DNA of 64,000 nucleotides from a virus. Taxonomy: Duplodnaviria; Caudoviricetes. The notes under the pieces were generated by a model. That model was not told the DNA's origin. It saw only the letters and a list, made by a program, of their open reading frames with translations, and did not search any database. Every line of letters begins with the position of its first letter. Within the stretch, counting starts at the first letter, position 1. The DNA lies in IMG/VR virus record IMGVR_UViG_3300021256_001754, positions 64,001 to 128,000 of that record, one strand, 5' to 3'. The translations under genes were made by a program, and so were the position numbers. Shown here piece after piece: positions 5,801 through 39,871 of this stretch.

Positions 5801-7527
5801 GTCATCCACAGGATAAGTATCGTAAACGTATTGATGGTGGAGATAAGGAATTCTCTGTTGTTACAATAGATAATTTTTATAATTGGTTAAAGACAAAACA
5901 TCCTGATTTATGGGTTGATAAGACTTGTAAGATATATGGATATAATTTCAAAGCAGATTTAGAAGAAATAAAATCTAATATGGAGATTATGCATTCTAAG
6001 TTTGGTTTCCATGATTGTTTTGGAGCAGAATTAAATTTGTCTAAGAATATAATTACATTCCCTAAGTTACTTACAGATGAAGGAGCACCTATATCTTTCA
6101 TTAAACCATTAAATGGTGTAATACAAACTTATGAGGAGATGTATAATATCTATGAGATAAATACTGTTTGTTATAAGGTATTATCTAAGCTTATAAGTAA
6201 TGCTGCTACAAGAGATGAACAGGTAATTTATCAATATCTTTTTGATACATTATTTATAACTCCATTTGATTATACTTTATACTTGGATAAATCTGGAACT
6301 CCTTATAATACATATGACGAGGTTCTGAGAGATAGAAACTTTAGTCTCTACACGTTCTATCTGAGTATAATGGAAGAGAATGATATAGAGATAAGAAAAG
6401 ATAATATAAGACAAATATTGAATTCTATTGTAGATACTCTTGAGTATTATATTAAGGGAAATAATTTACAGTATATCTATTCATATCTGCCAATATTTGA
6501 TTTCCATTCTCTTATGAAGTATATGATGCTTTTATTGAATTTCTTCAAATCTTGGAAAGTACATTTCTTAGATCCAGTAACAGAATTTGTCATTGGTGGA
6601 GATATAGCAGGCAAGAGAAATAAAGGTATCAAGTCTGATATGTTGGCCGAACATCGCAAGATTCATCTATTACAGGATTTATATGGTATGAGAGATTCAG
6701 CGAGAGTTACTTATGGATTTAATCCTGTAGAGAGATATAAGGTTGGAGTTGCTACTAAGGAAGTCGTTGATACATATGTATACCATAGACCAGATATAAG
6801 AACTATATGTCTGTTTGATGGAATGACTCCTGATGTAGAAGTTGATCACCTTGAATCTGTAAGAGCTACAACTTTTGATCAATCACTTCTTGATGGTGGA
6901 GATGTAACACAATACGGTCCTAAATATAAGATTGATTGTGGAGTTGTAGGAGCTGGATTAGACATACATTATCTTGATGGTGGAGATCCTATTACATATC
7001 AATATTCTGCTGTAGCAGATGGTGGAGATATGAGTGAAGACCTAACACCAGAAGATTATTATTTCAAGAGAAATAGAATTGATGGTGGTGGTATGGGCGA
7101 TAGAATCTACCAGACTAATTCTATTTGGAATGAATTAGAGGATCAGACATTAAAGAGTGATGTTAAACTTAGTGGTAAGATTACTAATAGAATTGAATCT
7201 ACAGAAGATGGATTATATGTGAAAGATGATATGGTTCCTGTAGATAAATTTAACCGGTTTAAGTATGATATGTATCAGAGTAGAATGAGACACCATGAAA
7301 CATTCGATACACAATATACTTATCTTATAGCTGCTAGTGACGACGATGCGTTAAGACGGTTAGTATATAATACAACTGAAGATTTGTTGAAGAGTTCTAG
7401 AATAGCTATAGATGAAATTGGTGGTGGAACAGCTAAAGAAATACTTACCAATAAGGTAGATGGACCTATTAATGAATTTGAGAGATGGTTCCAAGAAACT
7501 AACCCATTCACTTGGGAATTTTTCTAA
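2812..7527 (+). CDS. large virion structural protein, baseplate wedge-like, with acidic DFG/DGG repeat regions
   Basis: 1571 aa, strong RBS GGAGGTG; first gene of a structural cluster; repeated [YLMD]DFG and [ILV]DGG motifs. Confidence 0.7.
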   Translation: MSYSVNGKIYTDHALMDEIVYNCKLIMKGILLKNQTAADNNETASSILLAQDLKNIVENNYVFTQFPFTHADFIEYGYTSTEASQFIDNPSLVPEEYRADILEIGKRNFINNYVEQNNYYRNLNGLPNYTTDSDEEIERAERIYTYVPNGTVQTAKFAVNQYGYVYIGYKNPQIMANPDLTTELPLAAPIHTWNNYELSVLKHLGIFDEILEIYGKQSLFKYLNYMGDDPLDYYEARKAGKWDILRIPSCESLVQDEFKRFFNIERHEYLRKADQLALSYGSDYYDEMIMIEILCQTFADMIVDVPEWYIRRDIFDLRSVQYFLEANDIAFYKQIPLRYQIRIVKNMNKLIRYKSTNQNIKDILEIFSLQGTTVYKYYLIKKFLYNVNGRISDEDIEDESYDFGYDDEDEWSADLLNLDFFTEENNKFYPEYKDLAVFDFSVWSEVPVDLDDYDFGYEVNDSTIPSYDTDVEELDFYNDTVDSFDRTVKLTVYDFGNMDGSSAESVEREEERDNYKESQKTIVDEDGNVYELVFARCPVDENYDNYIRDPFNQYSYEYITEQDKYWDGEDVHNYVKNQHMMLDVNVDATKYMSLDYNISMEEYMYQMEYFLGMIFNSRIDTSNIKIPLPIVNANISYAITDIFMLMYILSYAYNGRTCNIKIPTVSNIEEKPDYSSYKLVDGGFPWSGGEVDPDWKLEDMDFGCEETDVIIWSGDEEDNLDFGFNVVINYRGYYRDYDFSKGYEEEYDFIIDDFGCEETDKFYFPASIGGLLDFGYHCDAGSNVDEFTYDYRIEINNDPEPESDDYGYDDSDTYEYDEEDPVLDFGDDDVDEYQAWRREDYDYSIMNADSYSNGNLLLAPSMYISAYNKAYKPKSKKNLMLKPLMASKNAIKQFAKYVTANEEEVEGVILGSTNKWVFGDLYDFLDEDPDYIEPRNNKTYTDPSYDFKFEDRGDVYARYQLRRYDFQPEEETDVWETIDPGVYAEADVCDAGDVSDGHPQDKYRKRIDGGDKEFSVVTIDNFYNWLKTKHPDLWVDKTCKIYGYNFKADLEEIKSNMEIMHSKFGFHDCFGAELNLSKNIITFPKLLTDEGAPISFIKPLNGVIQTYEEMYNIYEINTVCYKVLSKLISNAATRDEQVIYQYLFDTLFITPFDYTLYLDKSGTPYNTYDEVLRDRNFSLYTFYLSIMEENDIEIRKDNIRQILNSIVDTLEYYIKGNNLQYIYSYLPIFDFHSLMKYMMLLLNFFKSWKVHFLDPVTEFVIGGDIAGKRNKGIKSDMLAEHRKIHLLQDLYGMRDSARVTYGFNPVERYKVGVATKEVVDTYVYHRPDIRTICLFDGMTPDVEVDHLESVRATTFDQSLLDGGDVTQYGPKYKIDCGVVGAGLDIHYLDGGDPITYQYSAVADGGDMSEDLTPEDYYFKRNRIDGGGMGDRIYQTNSIWNELEDQTLKSDVKLSGKITNRIESTEDGLYVKDDMVPVDKFNRFKYDMYQSRMRHHETFDTQYTYLIAASDDDALRRLVYNTTEDLLKSSRIAIDEIGGGTAKEILTNKVDGPINEFERWFQETNPFTWEFF

Positions 7528-17809: not shown

Positions 17810-17856
17810 TAAGAATAACATCATGATAAATGCTGCCCATAGAAAGGAGAATTTTT

Positions 17857-24609: not shown

Positions 24610-24692
24610 TAAAACAGTTAAATCACAATAAAAAGAAAAGTACCAATTAAGGTACTTTTCTTTTTTTTTTTTTATTTTATAATTCTGGATAT

Positions 24693-24974
24693 GATGACTT
24701 AATCAAAAGACAGACAGTAAAAACGGGTGTAACCGGAACAATAATACCTGCTAATGGGGCACAATTATATCACTTACCACCGACAATACCGAGTGGATAT
24801 ATCTATCTTTGCGTTAATATCCGACAAGTTGGAACCGCAAATGGCTGGTTGTATCACGAGTTTTGCCAAGATGAAAATTACTCTTTGGTAATATTTAATC
24901 GTTATTCGAGTGATATAAATCAACCGTATGCAATTGATTATTTCTTTATAAAGGCAAATGTATTGCCGTATTAA
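24693..24974 (+). other. silent fibre-tip cassette C4 (93 aa; absent from ORF track)
   Basis: TGATGAC at 24692; hand translation DDLIKRQTVKTGVTGTIIPANGAQLYHLPPTIPSGYIYL...IDYFFIKANVLPY*; in-frame TAA at 24648. Confidence 0.8.
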
Positions 24975-25015
24975 ATTAGAATAAACTAAAATTAAAGCTA
25001 CCACAACATTTTATT

Positions 25016-25144
25016 ATATGGTGGAGGAAAAGTGTAGACTCTAGTTTATATACTTTAACTTTCGAGTATACGAAGTACAAGGTTGTTTAAACGAGGTAGA
25101 AGCCGACCATGCAAGGTGACAGAAATTCAAATCCTTGCCCATAT
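25016..25144 (+). ncRNA. tRNA-like structured RNA, copy 1
   Basis: ATATGG/CCATAT closing stem, D-arm-like GAG-GAAAAGTGTAGA-CTC, T-arm-like GCAAGG...TTCAAAT-CCTTGC. Confidence 0.7.
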
Positions 25145-25170
25145 TAAATTTTTGAGGAGAGCATCAAGAA

Positions 25171-25272
25171 ATGAATAAATATCATTATGTAATTATTGCT
25201 TTGATATTTTTATTCGGTGTCGAAATCGGTTTTGCAATAGGTGCGTATGTTGCACAAAACTTTTTAAAATGA
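25171..25272 (+). CDS. 33-aa single-TM peptide
   Basis: MNKYHYVIIALIFLFGVEIGFAIGAYVAQNFLK after GAGGAGAGCATCAAGAA. Confidence 0.5.
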   Translation: MNKYHYVIIALIFLFGVEIGFAIGAYVAQNFLK

Positions 25273-25470
25273 AATATTAAAATCTTTGCAAGGAGATTAT
25301 CGAGAATGAAATATTTTAAATTACACCGATTCTTACATCCTTTAAGGTGGCAGGAAATGCAATTCTTTTTTGATTTTCCATATCATGATTTTGATTTCGG
25401 AAAATTTAGAAGATAACTATTTTAAAACGAAATATTAAAATCTTTATATAGAGCATCAAGAAATAAATGA

Positions 25471-25594
25471 ATGTGGTGGTGGAATAGAGTAGACACAAAT
25501 ATTAAATTGTATGGTTGAGTCTGTTGACCCCAGACAGTTATATTGGTACAAATTGACCGTGTAAGGTGACAGAGATTCAAATCCTTACCCACAT
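25471..25594 (+). ncRNA. tRNA-like structured RNA, copy 2
   Basis: ATGTGG/CCACAT, GTG/CAC D-stem, GTAAGG/CCTTAC T-stem; near-identical to copy 5. Confidence 0.7.
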
Positions 25595-25616
25595 TAATTT
25601 TTAGAAAGAGGTTGCT

Positions 25617-25793
25617 ATGTGGATATGTAAAATAGAACCTAATGTAGCTTTATTAAAGTTAGGTGTTTATGAATGTTCTAATTGTCATAAAACCTTGATT
25701 GCATTATCGGAAGACGAAGCAAATACAAAACAACCTAGTATTAGCAATTATATTTTTTGTCCATATTGTGGTAAAGAGCATAATAAGAAATAA
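25617..25793 (+). CDS. 58-aa zinc-ribbon protein
   Basis: YECSNCHK...FCPYCGK; GAAAGAGG RBS. Confidence 0.65.
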   Translation: MWICKIEPNVALLKLGVYECSNCHKTLIALSEDEANTKQPSISNYIFCPYCGKEHNKK

Positions 25794-25797
25794 ATGG

Positions 25798-25958
25798 ATG
25801 TGGTGGAGGAAAAGAGTAGACTCTATAAAGGTAGATGTTAGTGTGACGCTTGTTGGGAATGTAAGCCGAGATAAATCTAAGCTATGAGGAAACCCTAGGC
25901 TATGTACGACCTATATAACATCATGCAAGGTGACAGAAATTCAAATCCTTGCCCACAT
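25798..25958 (+). ncRNA. tRNA-like structured RNA, copy 3
   Basis: ATGTGG/CCACAT, GAG/CTC, GCAAGG/CCTTGC with longer central region. Confidence 0.7.
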
Positions 25959-25984
25959 TAACTAGACTTTTGAAATGATCCTTA

Positions 25985-26013
25985 ATACCAGTAGGATATT
26001 ATTCCTACTGGTA
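25985..26013. terminator. CCAGTAGG-family hairpin
   Basis: ATACCAGTAGGA...TCCTACTGGTAT. Confidence 0.75.
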
Positions 26014-26078
26014 TATTTATAGCCAAAACATTATTATAAATAAGGCCTATTTAATTTTAAAGATAAGGAGAAAATGCC

Positions 26079-27254
26079 ATGGATACTCCATTATTTGTTA
26101 TCAAAAATATTTTTGAACATGAACTTGTTCCTGCTTTTAGAGTTATGTCTGCTAGATATAATGAAAGCAATAACAATAGTATGCTGGATATTACTGATAA
26201 TTTATGTGATATCACAAATAAGATTGTTACCGATTGTGAGTGTAGTGCTGTAATAGCAACGTTTAACCCAGATAAACCAAAATTCGGTGTTTATGTAAGC
26301 CCTACAATAATCGATTCAGATCTTACAAAATTTATCTTTGATAAAGAGGATATGAAATTAACACGATATTCTGCAGAGATAGATTTAGGAATGTTTGATC
26401 TTCTTACTCCTGAAGAAGTAGCAGCTGTATATATTGAGGAAATAACTACAGTAATGAGTAAGGTTACTATCGATAAGGTAAGAGGTATATTTGAAACTAT
26501 TATGACTGATAGAGATCTTACGATTAATTTTAGAGAATCAGTAAATTTCTCTCAGCTATTAATATTTGGTATAAAGGATACAATTCGTAAAGTTGCATCT
26601 TGCATATACAAACCAGAAGATGAACTTGGTACAAATGAATATGCTATAGAGTTTGGTTATAACGAGGCTTTGAAAACTATTATAGCAAAACTACATACAT
26701 TTATTTGCGATGGTATGGCTGTGGAAGTTAATCCTAAACTTAGTGTATTAAGCTGGGTTCTTTCTGTATATAACGAGCCAAGTATCAATTACAGACTTAT
26801 GCTTGAAGATCTTAATGCTGCTTTAGCATTAACAGGTTCTAAACTTGAACAGGATGAAGTATCTAAAACTATAACAAGTCTTAGAAGAGCAACAAATGAA
26901 ACTCTTGTAGAGACGGTTATTAAAGAAGATAGTTTATTTAAGAATCTTAAGCAGAATGGTTTACGTTCTATAGAAGACGATCTTTATGAATATAAGATAA
27001 GGGTTAAGACTTGCGAAACAGAAGACGATGCAATGTATATTCTACATCAGGTATCTACAAGAATAAATATTCTTGAAGATTACTTATATAATACACCAAA
27101 TTTATCTGAATATGAAATTCAGAGATGGACAAATGTAATTAATGCCTATAAACAGTTAAGACTCGAAATCAGCAAGAAACCTATAGTTGATAAGAAACGT
27201 TATGGTATATTTGTTGATTATGATTATCTTGATAGGCTTGATAATAAAGACTGA
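26079..27254 (+). CDS. probable virion structural protein
   Basis: 391 aa, AAGGAG RBS, AACA-N6-TA at 26027. Confidence 0.55.
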   Translation: MDTPLFVIKNIFEHELVPAFRVMSARYNESNNNSMLDITDNLCDITNKIVTDCECSAVIATFNPDKPKFGVYVSPTIIDSDLTKFIFDKEDMKLTRYSAEIDLGMFDLLTPEEVAAVYIEEITTVMSKVTIDKVRGIFETIMTDRDLTINFRESVNFSQLLIFGIKDTIRKVASCIYKPEDELGTNEYAIEFGYNEALKTIIAKLHTFICDGMAVEVNPKLSVLSWVLSVYNEPSINYRLMLEDLNAALALTGSKLEQDEVSKTITSLRRATNETLVETVIKEDSLFKNLKQNGLRSIEDDLYEYKIRVKTCETEDDAMYILHQVSTRINILEDYLYNTPNLSEYEIQRWTNVINAYKQLRLEISKKPIVDKKRYGIFVDYDYLDRLDNKD

Positions 27255-27269
27255 TAAGGTGGTATAGAA

Positions 27270-28163
27270 ATGGTTAACAAATTTGACCTAGTCGATTTAG
27301 ACGAAGAATATTGTGAACTTGTCGGGCTAAACAACGGAATTCCTGAGTGGTGTTTGGAAGCCGCTAGAATGAATTTTAATGATTATTCTGTAGATCGTAT
27401 CAATAGTCTATTTAGATCAATAAATAGTATTTCTGGATTAACAGAGGATGCCATTGCGGGAGCTGCTAAAATAGATACTATGAAAGATCTACGTGATATT
27501 GCTTCTAAACTGCATGTATCTATAGATCCTCAAGCAGGAAAACGTATTAATCGTGCTGCTACAGAAATAGCAATCACTATAAAGAAATACGGTTTATCTG
27601 ATACTTCCAAGAATTCTATTGCTCATATATACAATAAGAATCTAAATGATATTGTTAAATTCTCAAATGATTATTTTCATTTTAGTGAATTAGAGTTTGA
27701 GGGATATGATGCAAATAAGATTTCAAAATCAGTAATGCTGGTTATTGCGGTTATTTATTGTAATACACTATTTCATATTGTTGCAAATATGTTATTTGGC
27801 CCAATTATGGGATACATATTAACAGCTGTTATTGCTGCACCATTTTTTGAAGAGGGAGCTAAAGCCATTGCAACTCGCGATGAATATCCATTAGAGTTTG
27901 GTGTTGTATTCAATGTATGTGAAGCATCAATGTATATACGCAGATATGCTCCGCTTGTTGGATTGAAAAGGATCGTCGGTGCAAGATTATTCTGTGCTGG
28001 ATTCCATTTTATTACTATAGCTATTCATGTGCTTGGAGATATGCCTGAGGTTCGTAAGTTGCTTAATCTTGATACAGAAGAGGGACAAGAGAAACTTGCG
28101 TTTATAGCACATGTAGTTTCGATGCTTGTTCATGGATTATGGAATGCTAATGCTATCTTTTAA
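27270..28163 (+). CDS. PrsW/CPBP-like glutamic intramembrane protease domain protein
   Basis: APFFEEGAK, F...E, H and HGLWN motifs in hydrophobic helices. Confidence 0.6.
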   Translation: MVNKFDLVDLDEEYCELVGLNNGIPEWCLEAARMNFNDYSVDRINSLFRSINSISGLTEDAIAGAAKIDTMKDLRDIASKLHVSIDPQAGKRINRAATEIAITIKKYGLSDTSKNSIAHIYNKNLNDIVKFSNDYFHFSELEFEGYDANKISKSVMLVIAVIYCNTLFHIVANMLFGPIMGYILTAVIAAPFFEEGAKAIATRDEYPLEFGVVFNVCEASMYIRRYAPLVGLKRIVGARLFCAGFHFITIAIHVLGDMPEVRKLLNLDTEEGQEKLAFIAHVVSMLVHGLWNANAIF

Positions 28164-28257
28164 ATAACACGATAAGTTGCTGTAGGATATCTATTATCTA
28201 TAATAAAAATATCCAGTAGGTTATTAAACCTACTGGATTTCTTAAAAGGAGGTATAT

Positions 28258-28728
28258 ATGAATCTTGTTTATATAAAAGCAAAAGTAATAAATGGTACTG
28301 TTGCATATCCATCTAGAGTAATTCAGTTTAATAATATTATACCTATAAAAGCAGAATTAGATTCTACAAATCATACTATTATTACATTGAATTATGAATG
28401 TAAGTGTCTATATACAAAACCTAAATGTATAGATATATACATGAATAAGAATCCATATGTAATGGATTATTTCTATAAAGCATTACATGGAGAAAGACAT
28501 ATAAAGACAGATTATATAGAACACATATACATTACAAACGTTGATTCAGCAGATGCTATATTAACCAACAGATATAGGCTTTTTAACGCAATTACACAAA
28601 GTTTCTCACCAGATGGTAAAGAATTCGATATAAATCCATTACAGCTTCGTATAGCTCCATATAAGTACCATAATAGGAACATCTACGAAGAGGTTATTGA
28701 ATGGATTGCATCTATAAACAGAAAATAA
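28258..28728 (+). CDS. hypothetical protein
   Basis: 156 aa, AGGAGGT RBS. Confidence 0.7.
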   Translation: MNLVYIKAKVINGTVAYPSRVIQFNNIIPIKAELDSTNHTIITLNYECKCLYTKPKCIDIYMNKNPYVMDYFYKALHGERHIKTDYIEHIYITNVDSADAILTNRYRLFNAITQSFSPDGKEFDINPLQLRIAPYKYHNRNIYEEVIEWIASINRK

Positions 28729-28763
28729 ATTATTCCAGTACTCTTATAGAGTACTGGATATTT

Positions 28764-29060
28764 TTATAATGTATTTATTGTACTATCTGCTTTATTTCTA
28801 AGATCGATAAGCTTATCTGTTTCATGATACATACCATTATTTTTAAGAATAGATTCTATATTCTTAGCATGCCCATATTCATCTTTAGCCATACCAACAA
28901 GTATATCTTTTTCATTTTGATTGGTTGTTACAAATGATAAACGAGCATAATCTAAAGCACCTTTATACTCGTCATATAATTCTTCGTCTAATTCTTTAAA
29001 ATATACTCCGGTAGGAGTTTCATTGAAAGCTTCGTTTAGAAATTTTATACCATAACCCAT
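28764..29060 (-). CDS. ferritin-like four-helix protein
   Basis: EELYDEYKGALDY...DEYGHA; start set at MGYGIK after AGGAGG. Confidence 0.6.
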   Translation of the reverse strand: MGYGIKFLNEAFNETPTGVYFKELDEELYDEYKGALDYARLSFVTTNQNEKDILVGMAKDEYGHAKNIESILKNNGMYHETDKLIDLRNKADSTINTL

Positions 29061-29114
29061 AATATAATACCTCCTGTATAAATTATATAAATGTCTATAT
29101 AAAATTATACTACT

Positions 29115-29480
29115 GATGATTTTACTCTTTTGTGGACAAATCCTAATATAATTGCAGAATTTGCTGCACAAAAACTTTCAATTAATTTATCGAATTATAA
29201 AGGTGTTTTTATTGATTTTTTAGAGTATATTGGTGAATCTGTTCGTCAGAATATTGTAAATATTATTGCAATGGTGGGCACACCATATAATTATATTATA
29301 TTTGCTCCATTTTTTCAAAAAATGGACGAATCTGAAACTCCTTTAACACAAAATATGTCAGGTAGAGAATTTAAAATTTTAGATAACACAGGAATTACTT
29401 TTTATAACACTTATACTATAAAAGGTATAAATAATAAATTATGTATACCTTATAGAATTTATGGTATTAAACATAATTAA
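29115..29480 (+). other. silent fibre-tip cassette C5 (121 aa)
   Basis: TGATGAT at 29114; DDFTLLWTNPN...FAAQKLSINLSNY...IPYRIYGIK typical Firmicutes-phage tip; in-frame TAA at 29100. Confidence 0.85.
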
Positions 29481-29552
29481 TCAAAATAATATTTCTTGTA
29501 CTGATCTTTGATTATTCTATATAAAAGTTTATTATATCTTCTAGAGATATCT

Positions 29553-29954
29553 CTAGAAGATATATTTTGGGTTTATACTTCTAATTTTATCATAAACAGC
29601 TTTCGTTATTGGTATTTGATCATAATCTTCTACACTCCAAATTTTTTCTAATATATCTTCTCCTACTCTATATAAAGTACAAAGACTTCCATCCATACCA
29701 GTAACTTTTTCCGGAATATTTTCTATATTATCAATAATCTCTTTATCTATAGTAACCAAATTATCAGGTACATAATCAATTTTTAACGATCTTTTTGCAA
29801 TTATATTTTTATTATTGATTATTTCTTTTGGTAAATAATTTCTTCTACAAGCACCTTTAATAAAATTTATAATACCATTTTCAGTAATTAAAAATGCATG
29901 ATCTGTAATACCCCATCCAGATTCTCCGATATAAACAAGATATTTATAATTCAT
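29553..29954 (-). CDS. hypothetical protein
   Basis: 133 aa, AAGGAGG RBS. Confidence 0.65.
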   Translation of the reverse strand: MNYKYLVYIGESGWGITDHAFLITENGIINFIKGACRRNYLPKEIINNKNIIAKRSLKIDYVPDNLVTIDKEIIDNIENIPEKVTGMDGSLCTLYRVGEDILEKIWSVEDYDQIPITKAVYDKIRSINPKYIF

Positions 29955-30014
29955 ATTAAACCTCCTTTTAATTATAAAAAAGTTTTATAACTATTAATCG
30001 TTTATTATACTGCT

Positions 30015-30353
30015 GATGACGTAACTTCGCTAAATGACACTAAACTAAATAATACTGCTTATGTTATATCAGAGCATTTTGTTGCTAATACAATATCAAT
30101 ACAATATACTATGCCTTCACAACCAACATGTGGATTATTAATAATATCTGCATTTTATGATGGACAAGATCAATATGGATCAATTTGTATATCAGTCCCA
30201 TATAATGGAGGAGCTATTTCATGCATATCACCTGGTATTGAATCATATAGTCCTATAATAACTTATATTGATATTATTAATAACCAGGTTAATATATCTC
30301 TTGAACATCAGCAGTCTTGGGGAGGCTCGACAAAACTTATATACATTAAATAA
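30015..30353 (+). other. silent fibre-tip cassette C6 (112 aa)
   Basis: TGATGACGTAACTTCGCTAAATGAC identical to start of C2; in-frame TAA at 29988. Confidence 0.85.
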
Positions 30354-30360
30354 TATAAAT

Positions 30361-30678
30361 GATGATTGCGTTGAGCTTGCATCGTATTCTAATACCACTC
30401 GAACAACCATTAATTTAGCTGATAATATTACTAATTATAAATTTTTAATGTTGAATTTATATACAGGTGGACAGCTCAATACTACAGTAATAACAACTGT
30501 ACAGGATTTTATAAATAATTCTGGAGTTTTAAGACCAATTGTGGTTAATTTAGCCGCAGGAGCTTATCGATATTGGCAAACTATTGCTATTTACAATACA
30601 AATACATCAATTTTAGGAGAATGTGTGACAGATTTTCCTTCAAATGTACCATCAGCAAAACTTTTTGGAATTAAATAA
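30361..30678 (+). other. silent fibre-tip cassette C7 (105 aa)
   Basis: TGATGAT at 30360, 6 nt after C6 stop; TINLADNITNYKFL...KLFGIK tip pattern. Confidence 0.85.
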
Positions 30679-30705
30679 CTTTGGAGAGTATTAAAAACAA
30701 AATTA

Positions 30706-30883
30706 ATGTGGTGGCGGAATAGACATCAAGGAAGATGGTAAAAATTGTGTGCTGTGATTACAACAGAGTCAATTAATAGTAGACGCTTTATCGAAAATGT
30801 ATACCTACGGCAAAATGGAACATTGTTAGAAAGACAAGTAGTCCGTTAAACTTGTCATGTAAGGTGCAAATCCTTACACACAT
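30706..30883 (+). ncRNA. tRNA-like structured RNA, copy 4
   Basis: TTAATGTG/CACATTAA, GCGGAATAG...GTAGACGC with insertion, 7-nt T-loop GTAAGG-TGCAAAT-CCTTAC. Confidence 0.65.
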
Positions 30884-30895
30884 TAAATTTGGAGT

Positions 30896-31019
30896 ATGTG
30901 GTGGCGGAAAAGTGTAGACGCAAATATTAAATTGTATGGTTGAGCCAGTTGACCCCAAACAGTTATATTGGTACAAGTTGACCATGTAAGGTGACAGAAA
31001 TTCAAATCCTTACCCACAT
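30896..31019 (+). ncRNA. tRNA-like structured RNA, copy 5
   Basis: GCG/CGC D-stem, GTAAGG/CCTTAC; near-duplicate of copy 2. Confidence 0.7.
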
Positions 31020-31153
31020 TAATTTCGTGAAAACCTCGTGATTTTGGAGAACATAATGAGTACATGGTTAGAATGTTTATTCGGAATATGGCTTGTATTG
31101 AATATCTTTAAAACCATTAAAGACCTTGCATCATAATTGGAGAGCATCAAGAA

Positions 31154-31303
31154 ATGACCGTTAAAGAATTAATTGAACTACTCAAAAAGCAAAATCAAGA
31201 TGCCGTTGTTTACCATGATTATGACGGTGAATTGGCTTTGATAGTTACCGACGTCTCAGCAAATGCAGTAGGGAGTCAAGAGGAAACGGTTTTGCTGTCT
31301 TAA
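31154..31303 (+). CDS. 49-aa phage protein (MTVKELIELLKK...)
   Basis: hand-translated; preceded by GGAGAGCATCAAGAA. Confidence 0.6.
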   Translation: MTVKELIELLKKQNQDAVVYHDYDGELALIVTDVSANAVGSQEETVLLS

Positions 31304-32398: not shown

Positions 32399-33694
32399 TT
32401 ACAGTAATTTAGCAGCTAATTTACTGAGTAGACTTCTTACACATTCATCTTCTGTAAATGTAAGTTGTCCAACCATAGTCTGATTCCTCATCTTTTCTGC
32501 AGTATAGATCAATCCATTACTTGTATAATCAAGTCTAGGATTATCTATCTGATTTGGATCTCCACAGAGAACAATCTTTGTTCTTTCACCGGCTCTCGTT
32601 ACAAGAGTCTTAGCCTGTATTCTTGTCATATTCTGAGCTTCATCTACAACGATAAAAGCATCCTTAATACTACGACCTCTTATATAAGCCATAGAACAAA
32701 TCTCTATAATTCCTTGATCAATAAGATCCTGTGCTTTCTCACTTAATACAGAGAGATTATCATAGAATGGATATAATAATGGTCCCATCTTTTCTTCAAG
32801 ATCTCCTGGTAAGAATCCTAAGTCTTCTCCATCAGGTATAGTATTTGTTCTGGTTATATACATCTTACTATATTCACATTTATCCTGAATAAGATATAAC
32901 CCAACAGCTAATGCTAAGAATGTCTTTCCACAACCAGCTGGTCCAATCATTAAGTTTAAAGCAATATCAGGATTAAGCAGCATCTCTATAGCATACTCCT
33001 GAGCAGCATTACGAGCTTTACAACCAATCTTCTTATTACCAGATATAAGATTAAGTTGTCCATTCTGGTATATAGTTAATGCAGAATGTCTGTTACCACT
33101 TAGAGTTTCATAATCCTCAACTCTGACAAATTGGTTCTCTTCAAATGGTTCGTGATTTTCTATTTTATTTGCATCTACAGATTTATTACTATAGATTTCA
33201 TTAACAATATCTGCTGAGGTTAAAATCACTTGTCTTCCTGTATATAACTTCTCACTTGATACATGATCGTTCTTATAGTTCTGAACTTCAACTCCTAATG
33301 CTAAAGCATCTATAGTTAAATTTGTATCGTTTGTAATAAGAATTACTTTGTTCTTTGGATGGAGTTTTGCCAACTTCATAGTTGACATGATAATTCTATT
33401 ATCAGGTTTACTCCGATCAAATCCTGATGGTGTATCGACATCTTCGAAGTCATCCATAAAGAGGAAAAGTGTACCTTTATTTTCCATCTTTACACCTTTT
33501 ACAAGGTTCCCTTTAAGTGAGACTATTTCTCTCAATATTCTAAAAGTTTCTCTGGCGGCAAACTCATGCTTATGCCTGTCTAATTCTTCCTTTACCACAT
33601 ATGGAAGAATTACGTAGTTGTCATCGAATCCTCTTAAAGCATTTCCACAAGTTTGGAATAGAATATTGGTGTCGAGAACGTAATATTTCTTCAT
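32399..33694 (-). CDS. phoH: PIN-PhoH family protein (PhoH2/YlaK-like)
   Basis: YVLDTNIL PIN domain, GPAGCGKT Walker A, GFLPGDLEEK, YIRGRS, DEAQN, GDPNQID. Confidence 0.9.
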   Translation of the reverse strand: MKKYYVLDTNILFQTCGNALRGFDDNYVILPYVVKEELDRHKHEFAARETFRILREIVSLKGNLVKGVKMENKGTLFLFMDDFEDVDTPSGFDRSKPDNRIIMSTMKLAKLHPKNKVILITNDTNLTIDALALGVEVQNYKNDHVSSEKLYTGRQVILTSADIVNEIYSNKSVDANKIENHEPFEENQFVRVEDYETLSGNRHSALTIYQNGQLNLISGNKKIGCKARNAAQEYAIEMLLNPDIALNLMIGPAGCGKTFLALAVGLYLIQDKCEYSKMYITRTNTIPDGEDLGFLPGDLEEKMGPLLYPFYDNLSVLSEKAQDLIDQGIIEICSMAYIRGRSIKDAFIVVDEAQNMTRIQAKTLVTRAGERTKIVLCGDPNQIDNPRLDYTSNGLIYTAEKMRNQTMVGQLTFTEDECVRSLLSKLAAKLL

Positions 33695-34019: not shown

Positions 34020-34898
34020 TTACTCCTTTGGAAATAACCATTCGGGTGCTTCTGAGGTATTAAATCCACTAGCACCTTTATGACCACCTCCATTGTATTG
34101 ATTGGAGATAATGGTTGTATCTATAGTATTACTATAGAGAGAATATTTAAATTTATGTGTTGAACCATCATATCTCCACAGGCAACACACATCGTATTTA
34201 TCAATCAAATCTCCAAATACAAAAGAGTTACCTATACCATTAACTACAATTGCCTTATAACCATTTATAGTTGTCTCGTATGCTCTTCTTCTCTGATACT
34301 TATTTTGCTTTCTCTCATAAGATCCAACAAGATTTCCTATTTCTATAATCTTTTTAGTAAGCTCATACGATTCTGTGGATTTTGATCTAATAAGCATTCT
34401 CCATAAGTCGGCTGTAGGAGAATCATCTTCTATAGCATCAACTCCCATTTTAAAGCTATCACTATCTTTTAGCTTCTTTTGCCAACAATCATAATCACTT
34501 ACTAGCTGTATCCACAACGGGCAATTTTTGATATTATATTCTCTTTCACAGTAGAAATATAGATAAGCTAAAGCACAACCAGAAATACCTTCTAATCTTA
34601 TACCATTCACATGGTTTAACTCAGGATGCATCTGAGTTATCTCTATAGAAGTTTTATGATGGTCTATCCAAATAATATTAGCAGCTTTTTGTCTTATCTT
34701 TTTAAATTCGTCATAATTAGATTCTTGTAAAGAAAAGTCAACTATAACAACAGTCTCATTTCTTTTTATCTGCTCTACAGGCCAAGCCATTTCATAATTC
34801 ATTTCGTAATAATGATTAGGATTATAATCATTATAATAACTAGCTGCAATGGCTGCTGCAGACTTACCATCCATGTCGTCATGATGTATACAGAACAT
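34020..34898 (-). CDS. DHH/DHHA1 phosphoesterase
   Basis: HHDDMDG, VDFS, IDHH, GGGHKGASGF. Confidence 0.9.
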   Translation of the reverse strand: MFCIHHDDMDGKSAAAIAASYYNDYNPNHYYEMNYEMAWPVEQIKRNETVVIVDFSLQESNYDEFKKIRQKAANIIWIDHHKTSIEITQMHPELNHVNGIRLEGISGCALAYLYFYCEREYNIKNCPLWIQLVSDYDCWQKKLKDSDSFKMGVDAIEDDSPTADLWRMLIRSKSTESYELTKKIIEIGNLVGSYERKQNKYQRRRAYETTINGYKAIVVNGIGNSFVFGDLIDKYDVCCLWRYDGSTHKFKYSLYSNTIDTTIISNQYNGGGHKGASGFNTSEAPEWLFPKE

Positions 34899-37696: not shown

Positions 37697-39871
37697 TTAT
37701 CTTTTTGGTGTTAATTGTGCTTTTACTGTAGCTTTGATATCATCCATAGTTACAGTTTCTTTATTAGTACTATTTATACCGGTGTCGTTATCCATAAAGT
37801 ATATAGGCTTTATAATCTTTCTCTCAGGAATATCATTAGACCTATCAACCAGTTTTGGATTAATAAAGTCTTGTGGTCTTTCCATAGCAAATGGATCAAG
37901 ATTTGATGGTTTATATAATACATGATTAGCCGCACTGGTTAATGTCTTCTTCAACTTACTTCCCTGAAGTCTTACACTAATTCTAGGAGAATTTGTTATA
38001 GCGTCTTCAAGAGTTATAAGCTGATATCCAGCATTAGACTGTTCCCAATCAGGCTCTAATAATATATCATCCGGATGTCTAATCTGATTAGAGATAAGAA
38101 CCTCAAAATGTACAGAATTGATCTTTATACCACCCTGCAGATTATATGCAATGAAATCCTGAAGTAATGTATTTCTGTCATGCATCTTGATAGAAGACTT
38201 ATTATCTATAAGATTCTTAATCTGCTTCATGGTTTTAGATAACTCATTGTTTTGAATATCTATATAGAATAGATTCAATCCAATCATTCTTGTAAGAGGA
38301 AGTACATAAACACCATCATCGTTTACATCTTCTTTTTCAAGTTCTGATATAAGGTCGTCATCTAAATAAATAGGATCGGACTCATTGGTATAAATAGATT
38401 CTATTCTACCATCAGGATATTGAATCTGGAAGTTGTATACATAATCATTGTTATCCTCATCTACATCTGTAGCACCCTCTACATCATCGTCTCCACTGTC
38501 AGATTCATCTATAATATTATCAGGATCAATAATAAGATTATATCTTCTATAATCTACATTATCTTTTAAGATGATTCTGTCATATTCTACATTAAACAAA
38601 TCGTAGAATGATTGAACCCATGTCATTTTGATAATAGACGCTTCAAGAAGATGTTTAGCAGACAATAATCGCTGAGTATATTTTGAAGATAATTGTTCCG
38701 AAGCAATCTGTCCAACGTTGATATCGTTATTAAGATAAGCCAATAAACCATAGCATCTATAACAGATACCAAATCCTTTAGCCGCAGATGCACATGTAAT
38801 AGGAGATCTAAATAATAATGTCTTACCGATAAGATGTTTATCAATCTCAGCGTTTAGAATATGCTCTACACCATCATATGATAACTTATAATATCGCATG
38901 TCAAACATGCTGAGCATGCTATTATCTTTGATATATACTTCTTCAAAGTTCTTTGTATCACATGAATACTGTGGATCAGGATTAAGGAAAGTATCCATAT
39001 TATTTAATCCTAATCTACGAGCAAATGCACCAGATTGTCCTACATTCTGTTTTGATATAATCTGTGCTATACGTCCTATAGAACTATCGATAACGATATC
39101 TTCTATACTCTTTAAACCACCATTGATAAAACTATGGTTTATAGGATGTGTAAATAGACCACCTTGACCATTAGGTTTAGGACCTATACATACATTAACT
39201 TCAGCAAACTGTTTAGGGTTTGTACCCTCTCCAGTCTGAAATGCATATTTCTGATTATGAGTAGATTCTGGTGCTGTAATATATTTCTGCTGAATCTTCT
39301 CATTTTTCATAATAAGCTCTTTAGCATCCTGCATTGGTACACCTGTTAAATCCAAATGCATTGTCTCATTAAATTCAGGATACTTTCTCATAAGCTCTAC
39401 AGTATCGTCAAAATCGACACTATTAGCAAAAAACATTTGATAGTTCTGTAGAGGTATAAACTTACTTATGCATCTATCTATGGACTGATTGATAGTTATT
39501 CTATCCATAGTCCTTAGATTTTTTCTTATGAAAAACTTATTTATATAATTAACCATCCAGTCTGTTTTTATGACCGGTTCAAATACAATATGCTTTGTAT
39601 CAATCTCTTTTCCAGATCTAGTAATCAAAGTCCAAAACATTAGATTGTATAAATACTGCTCTATATACAAACTACAATCTCCATGTCTGAAATGAATATT
39701 TATCTTAAATCTCTGCACTTCAGGATCTTCTATTCCATCATCTAAGATAGAAAGGATATTCTTGAAGTGATCATCGATGTTATCGTCGTTAATATCTTTG
39801 GTGTAAATATCTTGTACACCATTCTGTGCTAATTCTTTGTAATATCCGTAATTTTCAAAGTGTGGTAACAT
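37697..39871 (-). CDS. multisubunit RNA polymerase beta-prime C-terminal subunit (probably non-virion RNAP)
   Basis: GRIAQIISKQNVGQSGAFARRL, CDT...RSPITC...GICYRCYG, NVGQIASEQLSSKYTQRLLSAKH, VHFEVLISNQ. Confidence 0.9.
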   Translation of the reverse strand: MLPHFENYGYYKELAQNGVQDIYTKDINDDNIDDHFKNILSILDDGIEDPEVQRFKINIHFRHGDCSLYIEQYLYNLMFWTLITRSGKEIDTKHIVFEPVIKTDWMVNYINKFFIRKNLRTMDRITINQSIDRCISKFIPLQNYQMFFANSVDFDDTVELMRKYPEFNETMHLDLTGVPMQDAKELIMKNEKIQQKYITAPESTHNQKYAFQTGEGTNPKQFAEVNVCIGPKPNGQGGLFTHPINHSFINGGLKSIEDIVIDSSIGRIAQIISKQNVGQSGAFARRLGLNNMDTFLNPDPQYSCDTKNFEEVYIKDNSMLSMFDMRYYKLSYDGVEHILNAEIDKHLIGKTLLFRSPITCASAAKGFGICYRCYGLLAYLNNDINVGQIASEQLSSKYTQRLLSAKHLLEASIIKMTWVQSFYDLFNVEYDRIILKDNVDYRRYNLIIDPDNIIDESDSGDDDVEGATDVDEDNNDYVYNFQIQYPDGRIESIYTNESDPIYLDDDLISELEKEDVNDDGVYVLPLTRMIGLNLFYIDIQNNELSKTMKQIKNLIDNKSSIKMHDRNTLLQDFIAYNLQGGIKINSVHFEVLISNQIRHPDDILLEPDWEQSNAGYQLITLEDAITNSPRISVRLQGSKLKKTLTSAANHVLYKPSNLDPFAMERPQDFINPKLVDRSNDIPERKIIKPIYFMDNDTGINSTNKETVTMDDIKATVKAQLTPKR

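Follow-up and report, generated by a model that had tools for sequence, protein, structure and literature searches.

Five loci of a jumbo phage genome interpreted as genes for non-decoding, tRNA-Leu-derived scaffold RNAs with a variable cargo domain

The DNA analyzed here, referred to as the window, is a stretch of 64,000 nucleotides that corresponds to bases 64001-128000 of the 249,585-bp virus record IMGVR_UViG_3300021256_001754 (Duplodnaviria; Caudoviricetes), a genome of 32% G+C that is rated complete. The window contains phage hallmark genes for a tail-fibre protein, a PhoH-like protein and a helicase, as well as a gene for an RNA polymerase beta-like subunit (37697-39871), and we therefore regard the source as a jumbo phage that encodes a multisubunit RNA polymerase of its own. 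Comparison of the region 24900-31100 with GenBank phages by megablast found no near-identical phage DNA. This region contains five copies of a small RNA element that has the D arm, T arm and closing stem of a tRNA of the leucine type around a variable centre, and these five copies and the family to which they belong are the subject of this report.

A sequence-only reading of the window had placed five tRNA-like RNAs here, and a covariance model (R1) was found to match exactly these five copies, all on the + strand, each over model positions 1-109 and with E values from 5.6e-19 to 1.1e-11; it gave no other match in the window or in the 249.6-kb genome. Motif scans of the genome likewise recovered only the five copies. 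The R1 model has three helices, namely the closing stem (7 bp), the D stem (3 bp, with a loop of the Leu type) and the T stem (6 bp, with a loop of the UGCAAAU type). It was built from 41 sequences, 38 of which came from other phages, and copies 3 and 4 were left out of the seed.

Copy 1 (25015-25145; 64.8 bits, E 1.3e-16) begins with the 5′ strand of the acceptor-like closing stem (25015-25021), followed by the dinucleotide UG (25022-25023), the D arm (25024-25041; stem GAG/CTC), a centre of 69 nt (25042-25110), the T arm (25111-25138; GCAAGG, a 16-nt loop and CCTTGC) and the 3′ strand of the closing stem (25139-25145). Copy 2 (25470-25595; 71.6 bits, E 1.4e-18) has its D arm at 25479-25496 (GTG/CAC), a 64-nt centre at 25497-25560, the T arm at 25561-25588 (GTAAGG, a 16-nt loop and CCTTAC) and the closing 3′ strand at 25589-25595, and the corresponding parts of copy 3 (25797-25959; 49.1 bits, E 4.8e-12) are a D arm at 25806-25823 (GAG/CTC), a centre of 101 nt at 25824-25924, a T arm at 25925-25952 and a 3′ strand at 25953-25959. 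The D stem of copy 4 (30705-30884; 47.8 bits, E 1.1e-11) is formed by 30714-30716 and 30784-30786 (GCG/CGC) around a D loop of 67 nt (30717-30783), and is followed by a 72-nt centre (30787-30858), a T arm with the short loop TGCAAAT (30859-30877) and the 3′ strand (30878-30884). Copy 5 (30895-31020; 73 bits, E 5.6e-19) comprises a D arm at 30904-30921 (GCG/CGC), a 64-nt centre at 30922-30985, a T arm at 30986-31013 and a 3′ strand at 31014-31020.

The order of parts is the same in every copy: a closing stem of 6-7 bp, UG (U8 G9 in tRNA numbering), a 3-bp D stem, the centre, the junction bases YAU, a 6-bp T stem, and the closing 3′ strand. The closing stem is ATATGG/CCATAT in copy 1 and ATGTGG/CCACAT in copies 2-5; its seventh pair is A-U in copies 2 and 4, G-U in copy 3 and a U-U mismatch in copies 1 and 5, and copy 4 has a G-A mismatch at the pair adjoining the T stem. 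The T stems are GCAAGG/CCTTGC or GTAAGG/CCTTAC, and 3′ of the closing stem there is an A and then A/T-rich sequence, without an encoded CCA. Therefore, the closing stem and the covarying D and T arms of the sequence-only reading are all present in the parsed copies, as are the lack of CCA and the replacement of the anticodon arm by a variable centre.

The copies differ from each other in the two loops that would form the tRNA elbow. The D loop of the window copies reads GAAWAG-N-GTAGA, with one extra base between the two G's, and it is at this position that about 55 nt (approximately 30723-30778) are inserted in copy 4, giving 67 nt compared to 12 in the sister copies. An insertion of this type was absent from all other family loci examined. 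In copies 1, 2, 3 and 5 the T loop has 16 nt, TGAC-AGARATT-CAAAT, which is the family loop TGCAAAT with nine extra bases.

To evaluate pairing in stems that had not themselves been selected, membership was set by the loop motifs alone, which gave 93 unique members. Acceptor pairs 1-6 were paired in 96-100% of these and pair 7 in 81%, the four free T-stem pairs were paired in 95-100% with up to five pair types per position, and the middle D-stem pair was C-G in 80 members and U-A in 13, whereas a control in a slid register gave 34-43% pairing. Similarly, 98% of the cells of a second alignment (A2) were paired, compared to 34-48% after sliding, with double changes at 10 of the 16 pairs, and none of 500 shuffles reached the observed value. 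Each of the three helices thus shows compensatory changes, which gives the structure firm support. These pairing results define a stack of 7 + 6 bp, which the U-U at pair 7 shortens to 6 + 6 bp in copies 1 and 5. The most conserved parts of the family are the D loop, the T loop and the YAU bases before the T stem, and the acceptor sequence and the centre vary freely. About one quarter of the members have insertions in the elbow, and a one-base D-loop insertion co-occurs with an enlarged T loop (8 of 12 versus 17 of 96; Fisher p 8e-4, in a sample biased by the search patterns and by relatedness).

The family extends well beyond this phage. Exact-pattern scans of IMG/VR with words from the D arm or the T loop fetched more than 140 loci, of which 13 D-arm matches were ordinary tRNA-Leu(UAA) genes and most of the others share the architecture of the window copies. 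From these contigs 117 elements were parsed, 108 of them unique, with centres of 9-200 nt (median 76). The T loop was TGCAAAT in 76, a 16-nt form in 21, and a form with an insert of 46-73 nt at the same loop position in seven; in L049, L054, L078, L093 and L094, this insert is a stem-loop located at the place (TGAC[...]CAAAT) where the window copies have nine extra bases.

Among named phages, R1 also matches Bacillus phages SPP1, Grass and phi3T and Listeria phage LP-101, at E values from 6e-22 to 8e-16. The SPP1 element (NC_004166 6647-6755) is located between head genes, and that of Grass is inside a tRNA array, between tRNA-Asn and tRNA-Gln. A BLAST search with the SPP1 copy gave matches in phages of Bacillus, Enterococcus, Listeria, Lactobacillus, Leuconostoc and Weissella, and most of the matches to the element were unannotated; part of the matches, such as those in Synechococcus phages, were true tRNA-Leu genes. 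A restricted pattern scan with one genome per species yielded 21 matches, mostly in Bacillota and in prophage-like loci. The phage crAss001 was rejected as a member, as it gave weak BLAST matches to copy 5 but nothing with R1. The family is without annotation in every record examined, and a description of it was not found in the full-text literature searched, so that it appears to be undescribed. The 2018 re-annotation of SPP1 mentions no tRNA-like RNA at this site and only calls a terminator just behind the element (PMC6316719). Directly behind the SPP1 element (6770-6824) we observed a second, mini tRNA-like helix, with a closing stem ACGGAC/GTCCGT and a T arm CGGG-TTCAATT-CCCG, followed by TTTTT; this region was called a weak Rho-independent terminator in the re-annotation (PMC6316719).

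The RNAs were compared with known tRNA-like classes. ARAGORN found no tRNA gene in the window, and hence none at the five copies, and on the 108 unique members it made one call, three doubtful calls with introns allowed, and none in tmRNA mode. No Rfam model matched at its gathering score, nor at E<=10 over 24900-31100, and over 18 member loci only true tRNAs matched at E<=0.1; the match to a described Rfam family that, by the sequence-only reading, would have removed the novelty was thus not found. A canonical tRNA-Leu was rejected because there is no 5-bp anticodon stem with a 7-nt loop and Leu anticodon, and no remnant of an anticodon arm was seen at either edge of the centres in the family alignment. 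Also rejected were a canonical 7/5 acceptor/T stack with a UUC-type loop, since the T stem has 6 bp and the loop is UGCAAAU or the 16-nt variant; a tmRNA, with its resume codon, tag reading frame and pseudoknots, in view of the ARAGORN and Rfam results; and YrlA or another Rfam family, as no curated covariance model matched. A D arm of the Leu type was found, with a 3-bp stem and a GAAUUGGUAGA-like loop that in the window copies has one extra base between the G's. It is concluded from the sequences that these RNAs cannot decode, and the view of them as tRNA mimics that derive from tRNA-Leu, show real covariation and lack both the anticodon arm and CCA is upheld.

Charging of the RNAs across the family also seems unlikely. 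The CCA end is encoded in two of the 108 unique members, and the discriminator base is not conserved (A in 45, T in 33, G in 17 and C in 13). True tRNAs in the same loci do encode CCA (5 of 5 in L098, 21 of 22 in L069 and 12 of 12 in L084), whereas the element there does not. All five window copies have an A at the discriminator place after the 7-nt 3′ strand, and the host could add CCA, so that leucylation of these particular copies is possible; a search of the phage genome found no CCA-adding enzyme and no RtcB gene.

The centres were evaluated as a possible cargo of this chassis. The 109 centres fall into 100 sequence groups, and they fold somewhat better than control DNA (mean z -0.81 versus -0.34, p 6e-4). 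The centre is about 90% identical between SPP1, a siphovirus, and Grass, a member of the Herelleviridae, which are unrelated phages of B. subtilis, whereas the acceptor stems of the two elements are wholly different and compensated. Within the window, the centres of copies 2 and 5 are 93.5% identical and are also common to three other loci (L010, L036 and L152), which have different chassis variants. The sequence comparisons thus indicate that the centres are not neutral filler and that the cargo is the variable and selected part of the RNA. The shared centre has a predicted pentaloop G-NNN-G with a hypervariable, anticodon-like triplet, in which NNN is CCA, TCT, ACA, GTA or GCG; this triplet pattern comes from five sequences, with the stem kept in only some of them, and a further database scan gave one more member. 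A nested T-arm-like hairpin, GGTTCGAWTCC, was observed in the cargos of L001, L032, L040, L042, L050, L069, L082 and L114, and the cargo of L104 holds nearly a whole second tRNA within the chassis; reuse of T-loop modules within cargos is possible.

Among 112 loci, no gene emerged as an obligate partner, the commonest neighbour being the terminase small subunit (12 of 112). A true tRNA lies within 300 nt of 25 of the 112 elements, and the nearest tRNA is on the same strand for all 32 elements with a tRNA in the locus. The genome of the window phage has a single tRNA (Thr) according to ARAGORN.

Comparison with known systems places the family closest to tRNA-Leu and to an engineered design. Phage tRNA-Leu(UAA), a class II tRNA (RF00005), has the same U8 G9, 3-bp D stem, base-paired acceptor stem, T arm and invariant U before the T stem, and a nearly identical D loop (GAAUAGGUAGA). 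The phage family differs in that it has neither the anticodon arm nor the long variable arm, the T stem is 6 bp instead of 5, the T loop is UGCAAAU (with G at 55) or enlarged, and there is neither an encoded CCA nor a conserved discriminator. In the engineered tRNA scaffold, an insert replaces the anticodon stem-loop, cellular tRNA enzymes recognise and process the chimera, and the insert is protected (Ponchon and Dardel; PMC3753655). The design is the same, with the acceptor stem and the T and D arms kept around an insert; the engineered scaffold, however, was constructed on the bodies of human tRNA-Lys3 or of E. coli tRNAs, whereas the phage family is natural, of the Leu type and with a modified T loop, and its processing is predicted. 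By this analogy, we propose that the phage RNAs are a natural counterpart of the engineered scaffold.

A second parallel is found in the T loop, in which most members have TGC or TGT in place of TTC and therefore lack a pseudouridine-55 site. The non-proteogenic tRNA-Gly species of S. aureus have the same TGC/TGT triplet and bind neither EF-Tu nor ribosomes (PMC7826273). These tRNAs also come from Bacillota and have a role outside translation (PMC7826273), but they are complete, possess an anticodon, are charged with glycine and are used by Fem transferases, whereas the phage RNAs have no anticodon. The likeness fits an RNA that is kept out of translation, as a parallel and not as proof. The RNAs of T4 known as species 1 and species 2 (rnaC and rnaD) are likewise small stable phage RNAs, encoded at the end of the phage tRNA cluster, and rnaC ends in a T-arm-like hairpin and a closing strand; a reading of the T4 sequence revealed no sequence similarity, Leu-type D arm or UGCAAAU loop, and as far as can be told they are not homologous. 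Both tmRNA and YrlA similarly join a tRNA-like domain to a non-tRNA module, and the ends of tmRNA form an acceptor stem around a large insert, but tmRNA differs in its reduced D arm, G3-U70 alanine identity, CCA, pseudoknots and tag reading frame. The topology of YrlA is reported to be permuted (Chen et al. 2014).

The UGC-type T loop, the selected and diverse cargo, the lack of a partner gene, the same-strand tRNA neighbours and the likeness to the tRNA scaffold together lead us to favour, at about even confidence, the interpretation that the five loci are genes for non-decoding, tRNA-Leu-derived scaffold RNAs that show a variable cargo domain. A scaffold presenting a variable region was one of several roles suggested in the sequence-only reading, and it is the one that best fits the family-wide pattern. 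In the proposed RNA, the closing stem would be stacked on the 6-bp T stem, the Leu-type D arm and the T loop would form the elbow, and the cargo domain, which differs between copies, would take the place of the anticodon and variable arms. The chassis would mimic a pre-tRNA, such that host RNase P and RNase Z could excise the RNA from a polycistronic transcript, or, in the case of copy 1, the RNA might start directly at the +1 of a late promoter; the tRNA fold would then stabilise the excised RNA. Exclusion of the RNA from translation would follow from the lack of an anticodon, from the UGC-type T loop and from an acceptor/T stack that, at 7/6 (or 6/6), is non-canonical, and the specific work would be done by the cargo, most likely by binding of a host or phage factor.

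Several points weigh against the scaffold interpretation. The window centres are not clearly structured (z -0.36, -0.78, +0.77 and -1.3), and four of the five copies have extra D-loop and T-loop bases at the elbow that could disturb recognition by RNase P. The conservation of the chassis is partly inflated, as members were fetched with exact chassis patterns, and the processing, RNA ends and partner of the scaffold are predictions from sequence, beside RNA-run contigs of low depth. Furthermore, any tRNA body would suffice for processing and stability alone, yet the Leu-type D arm and the UGCAAAU loop are strictly kept, which suggests that some factor recognises the chassis itself.

If the RNAs are scaffolds with cargo, they would provide a natural route to stable small RNAs from polycistronic phage transcripts, and a large pool of phage RNA effectors. 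More tentatively, Bacillota phages may share a universal display chassis derived from tRNA-Leu, on which they evolve and exchange small RNA effectors tuned to the host. We regard this broader proposal as possible but somewhat doubtful; if true, the effectors could, for instance, inhibit or bait targets of host defence or host takeover, unrelated phages of the same host would pass cargo modules to each other, as in SPP1 and Grass, and the five jumbo-phage paralogues would be five different effectors. In either case, a structured RNA family of hundreds of phages lacks both annotation and an Rfam entry; its loci escape tRNA finders and gene callers, and spurious small ORFs are sometimes called over them. 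The family includes workhorse models, namely SPP1, phi3T, SBSphiJ/Grass-type phages and phages of Listeria and Enterococcus, and its function is therefore directly testable in B. subtilis.

The alternative that fares best centres on the chassis itself, as a decoy or sponge in which a mimic of the top half and elbow of host tRNA-Leu soaks up a host factor and the centre is free to vary. The proposed targets are a tRNA-targeting defence nuclease or toxin, a modification enzyme, LeuRS or a T-box platform. The pattern of conservation described above, with the D loop, T loop and YAU most constant, would be expected of such a decoy, as would the concentration of the family in Bacillota phages and prophage-like loci and the discriminator A in all five window copies (in the 7-bp reading). 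However, the discriminator and CCA are not maintained across the family, the elbow is itself interrupted in about a quarter of the members, and a cargo that stays 90% conserved between SPP1 and Grass while the acceptor stems diverge is unlike pure filler. A decoy for anticodon nucleases, as suggested in the sequence-only reading, is unsupported because the copies have no anticodon loop to cleave. Overall, we consider a decoy function unlikely, albeit not negligible.

A role in processing punctuation or in stabilising mRNA ends, in which the fold would do no more than mark sites for RNase P and RNase Z cleavage, or protect mRNA ends, and so separate and stabilise the neighbouring mRNAs of long phage transcripts, is consistent with the location of the copies between small ORFs on the same strand, with a ribosome-binding site and ATG within 20-30 nt after each copy. 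It also fits the SPP1 element, which closes a late unit and is soon followed by the terminator predicted at 6780-6824, and the element's location about 1.4 kb upstream of the terminase gene in the 12 of 112 loci mentioned above. However, punctuation gives no reason to keep an anticodon-less Leu chassis with a UGC T loop instead of an ordinary tRNA, does not explain the conservation of the cargo across unrelated phages, and is hard to reconcile with copies 4 and 5, which are back to back with nothing between them to separate. A contribution of the RNAs as RNase P/Z processing signals, which the sequence-only reading had raised, is possible, but punctuation as the sole function is rather improbable.

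It is far less probable that these are functional tRNA-Leu genes interrupted by introns and spliced to a decoding tRNA. The D arm hardly differs from that of true phage tRNA-Leu(UAA) genes, and the insertions occur at three places (anticodon region, D loop and T loop), a pattern reminiscent of multi-intron archaeal tRNAs. However, ARAGORN with introns allowed gave only the three doubtful calls, the edges of the centre form no anticodon stem, the centres are too short for group I introns, and in the minimal member, L077, the D and T arms are only about 8 nt apart. The absence of RtcB and CCA enzyme genes from the genome points in the same direction, and a search for T4-type RNA ligase with Rnl1 gave no match in the phage genome, which is uninformative as the control genomes gave none either. 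RNA-library contigs from the same sample, which were assembled at low depth with DNA carry-over possible and whose cover leaves out the 5′ half of copy 1 and 28419-30695, run unbroken over 25568-25921 (copy 3) and, for a variant of copy 4 with nine differences, over 30701-30876, with no spliced joint that skips the centre.

Two of the changes in the copy-4 variant fall in a predicted hairpin of the cargo (30833-30856), and both convert a Watson-Crick pair to G-U, a further sign that the centres are not neutral filler. Low-depth DNA joints that skip the centres were seen (30722>30854 and 30921>30983) and probably come from other family members in the sample. A copy-4-like element of a second strain or related phage in the same sample (runs X3 and X1) was observed in a different flank, with a loose end before 30701; elements of this kind therefore appear to move between contexts.

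The sequence-only reading had also noted that both clusters follow 'tip cassettes', raised a variable guide region as one possibility and described a link to cassette switching as only positional. Directly upstream of the RNA clusters there are indeed stop-to-stop frames of 107-138 aa without a convincing start (24651-24974, 29991-30353 and 30262-30678), two of the three opening near a D-D motif. The first of these frames (24651-24974) stops 41 nt short of copy 1 and the third (30262-30678) 27 nt short of copy 4; a search with the frame 30268-30678 gave no Pfam or PHROG match. Their position thus stands, but a link to switching is not supported beyond it: at best, a centre or the D-loop insert matches some other part of the genome, in sense or antisense, over 11-13 nt, which is not above the level of shuffled centres (mean about 12.8 nt, maximum 14-17 nt). 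Members of the family in other phages stand within tRNA arrays or upstream of packaging and head genes rather than next to such cassettes, so that RNAs that guide recombination of cassettes have very little to commend them. Equally implausible are decaying tRNA pseudogenes without function, which are excluded by the compensatory changes in three helices and by conservation across hundreds of phages.

The transcription of the scaffold RNAs was considered from the local layout. A motif AACA-N6-TA (AACATTTTATTA, 25005-25016, + strand) precedes copy 1 and is a candidate late promoter of the AR9 type, by pattern match; the late promoter consensus of the jumbo phage AR9 is AACA-(6N)-TA/G, with the start site at the last base (PMC5312081), which puts the +1 at A25016. 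The claim that copy 1 starts at this +1 holds as far as the match to the published consensus is concerned, and use of the candidate site is plausible; a start at A25016 would make the primary 5′ end the first base of the 6-bp closing stem of copy 1. The motif AACA-N6-T[AG] is rarer than expected in the window (39 versus 79 +/- 8), and throughout the genome it is about 3-fold enriched within 80 nt upstream of ATG starts led by a Shine-Dalgarno sequence (18 versus 5.7 on the + strand and 8 versus 2.8 on the - strand). Together with the RNA polymerase beta-like gene, this distribution suggests a transcription scheme like that of AR9 and phiKZ. Scans for sigma-70 promoters and terminators gave matches at chance level only.

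Behind copy 3, on the + strand, the sequence contains a 12-bp hairpin (ATACCAGTAGGA / TCCTACTGGTAT, loop TATTAT; 25985-26014), which we infer to be a terminator. Copy 1, two small ORFs, copy 2, a zinc-ribbon ORF and copy 3 would then probably form a unit of about 1 kb that ends at this hairpin. A further AACA-N6-TA site stands after the hairpin, at 26027-26038, ahead of the gene at 26079, and another AACA-N6-T[AG] site was seen at 17817-17828.

The word GAGCAT(C/A)A..AGAAAT(G) was observed at 25159-25172, 25450-25469, 25775-25796 and 31140-31156, where it precedes small ORFs, as ribosome-binding site and ATG, and also copies 2 and 3. Because the same word stands before both, ORFs and RNA genes seem to be interchangeable behind one boundary sequence, possibly a junction at which a hyperplastic region recombines. 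Beyond the clusters, on the - strand, the PhoH-like ATPase (32399-33694; E 1e-96 to PHROG 2765) adjoins a DHH phosphoesterase (34020-34898), and the N-terminal part of the PhoH-like protein looks PIN-like.

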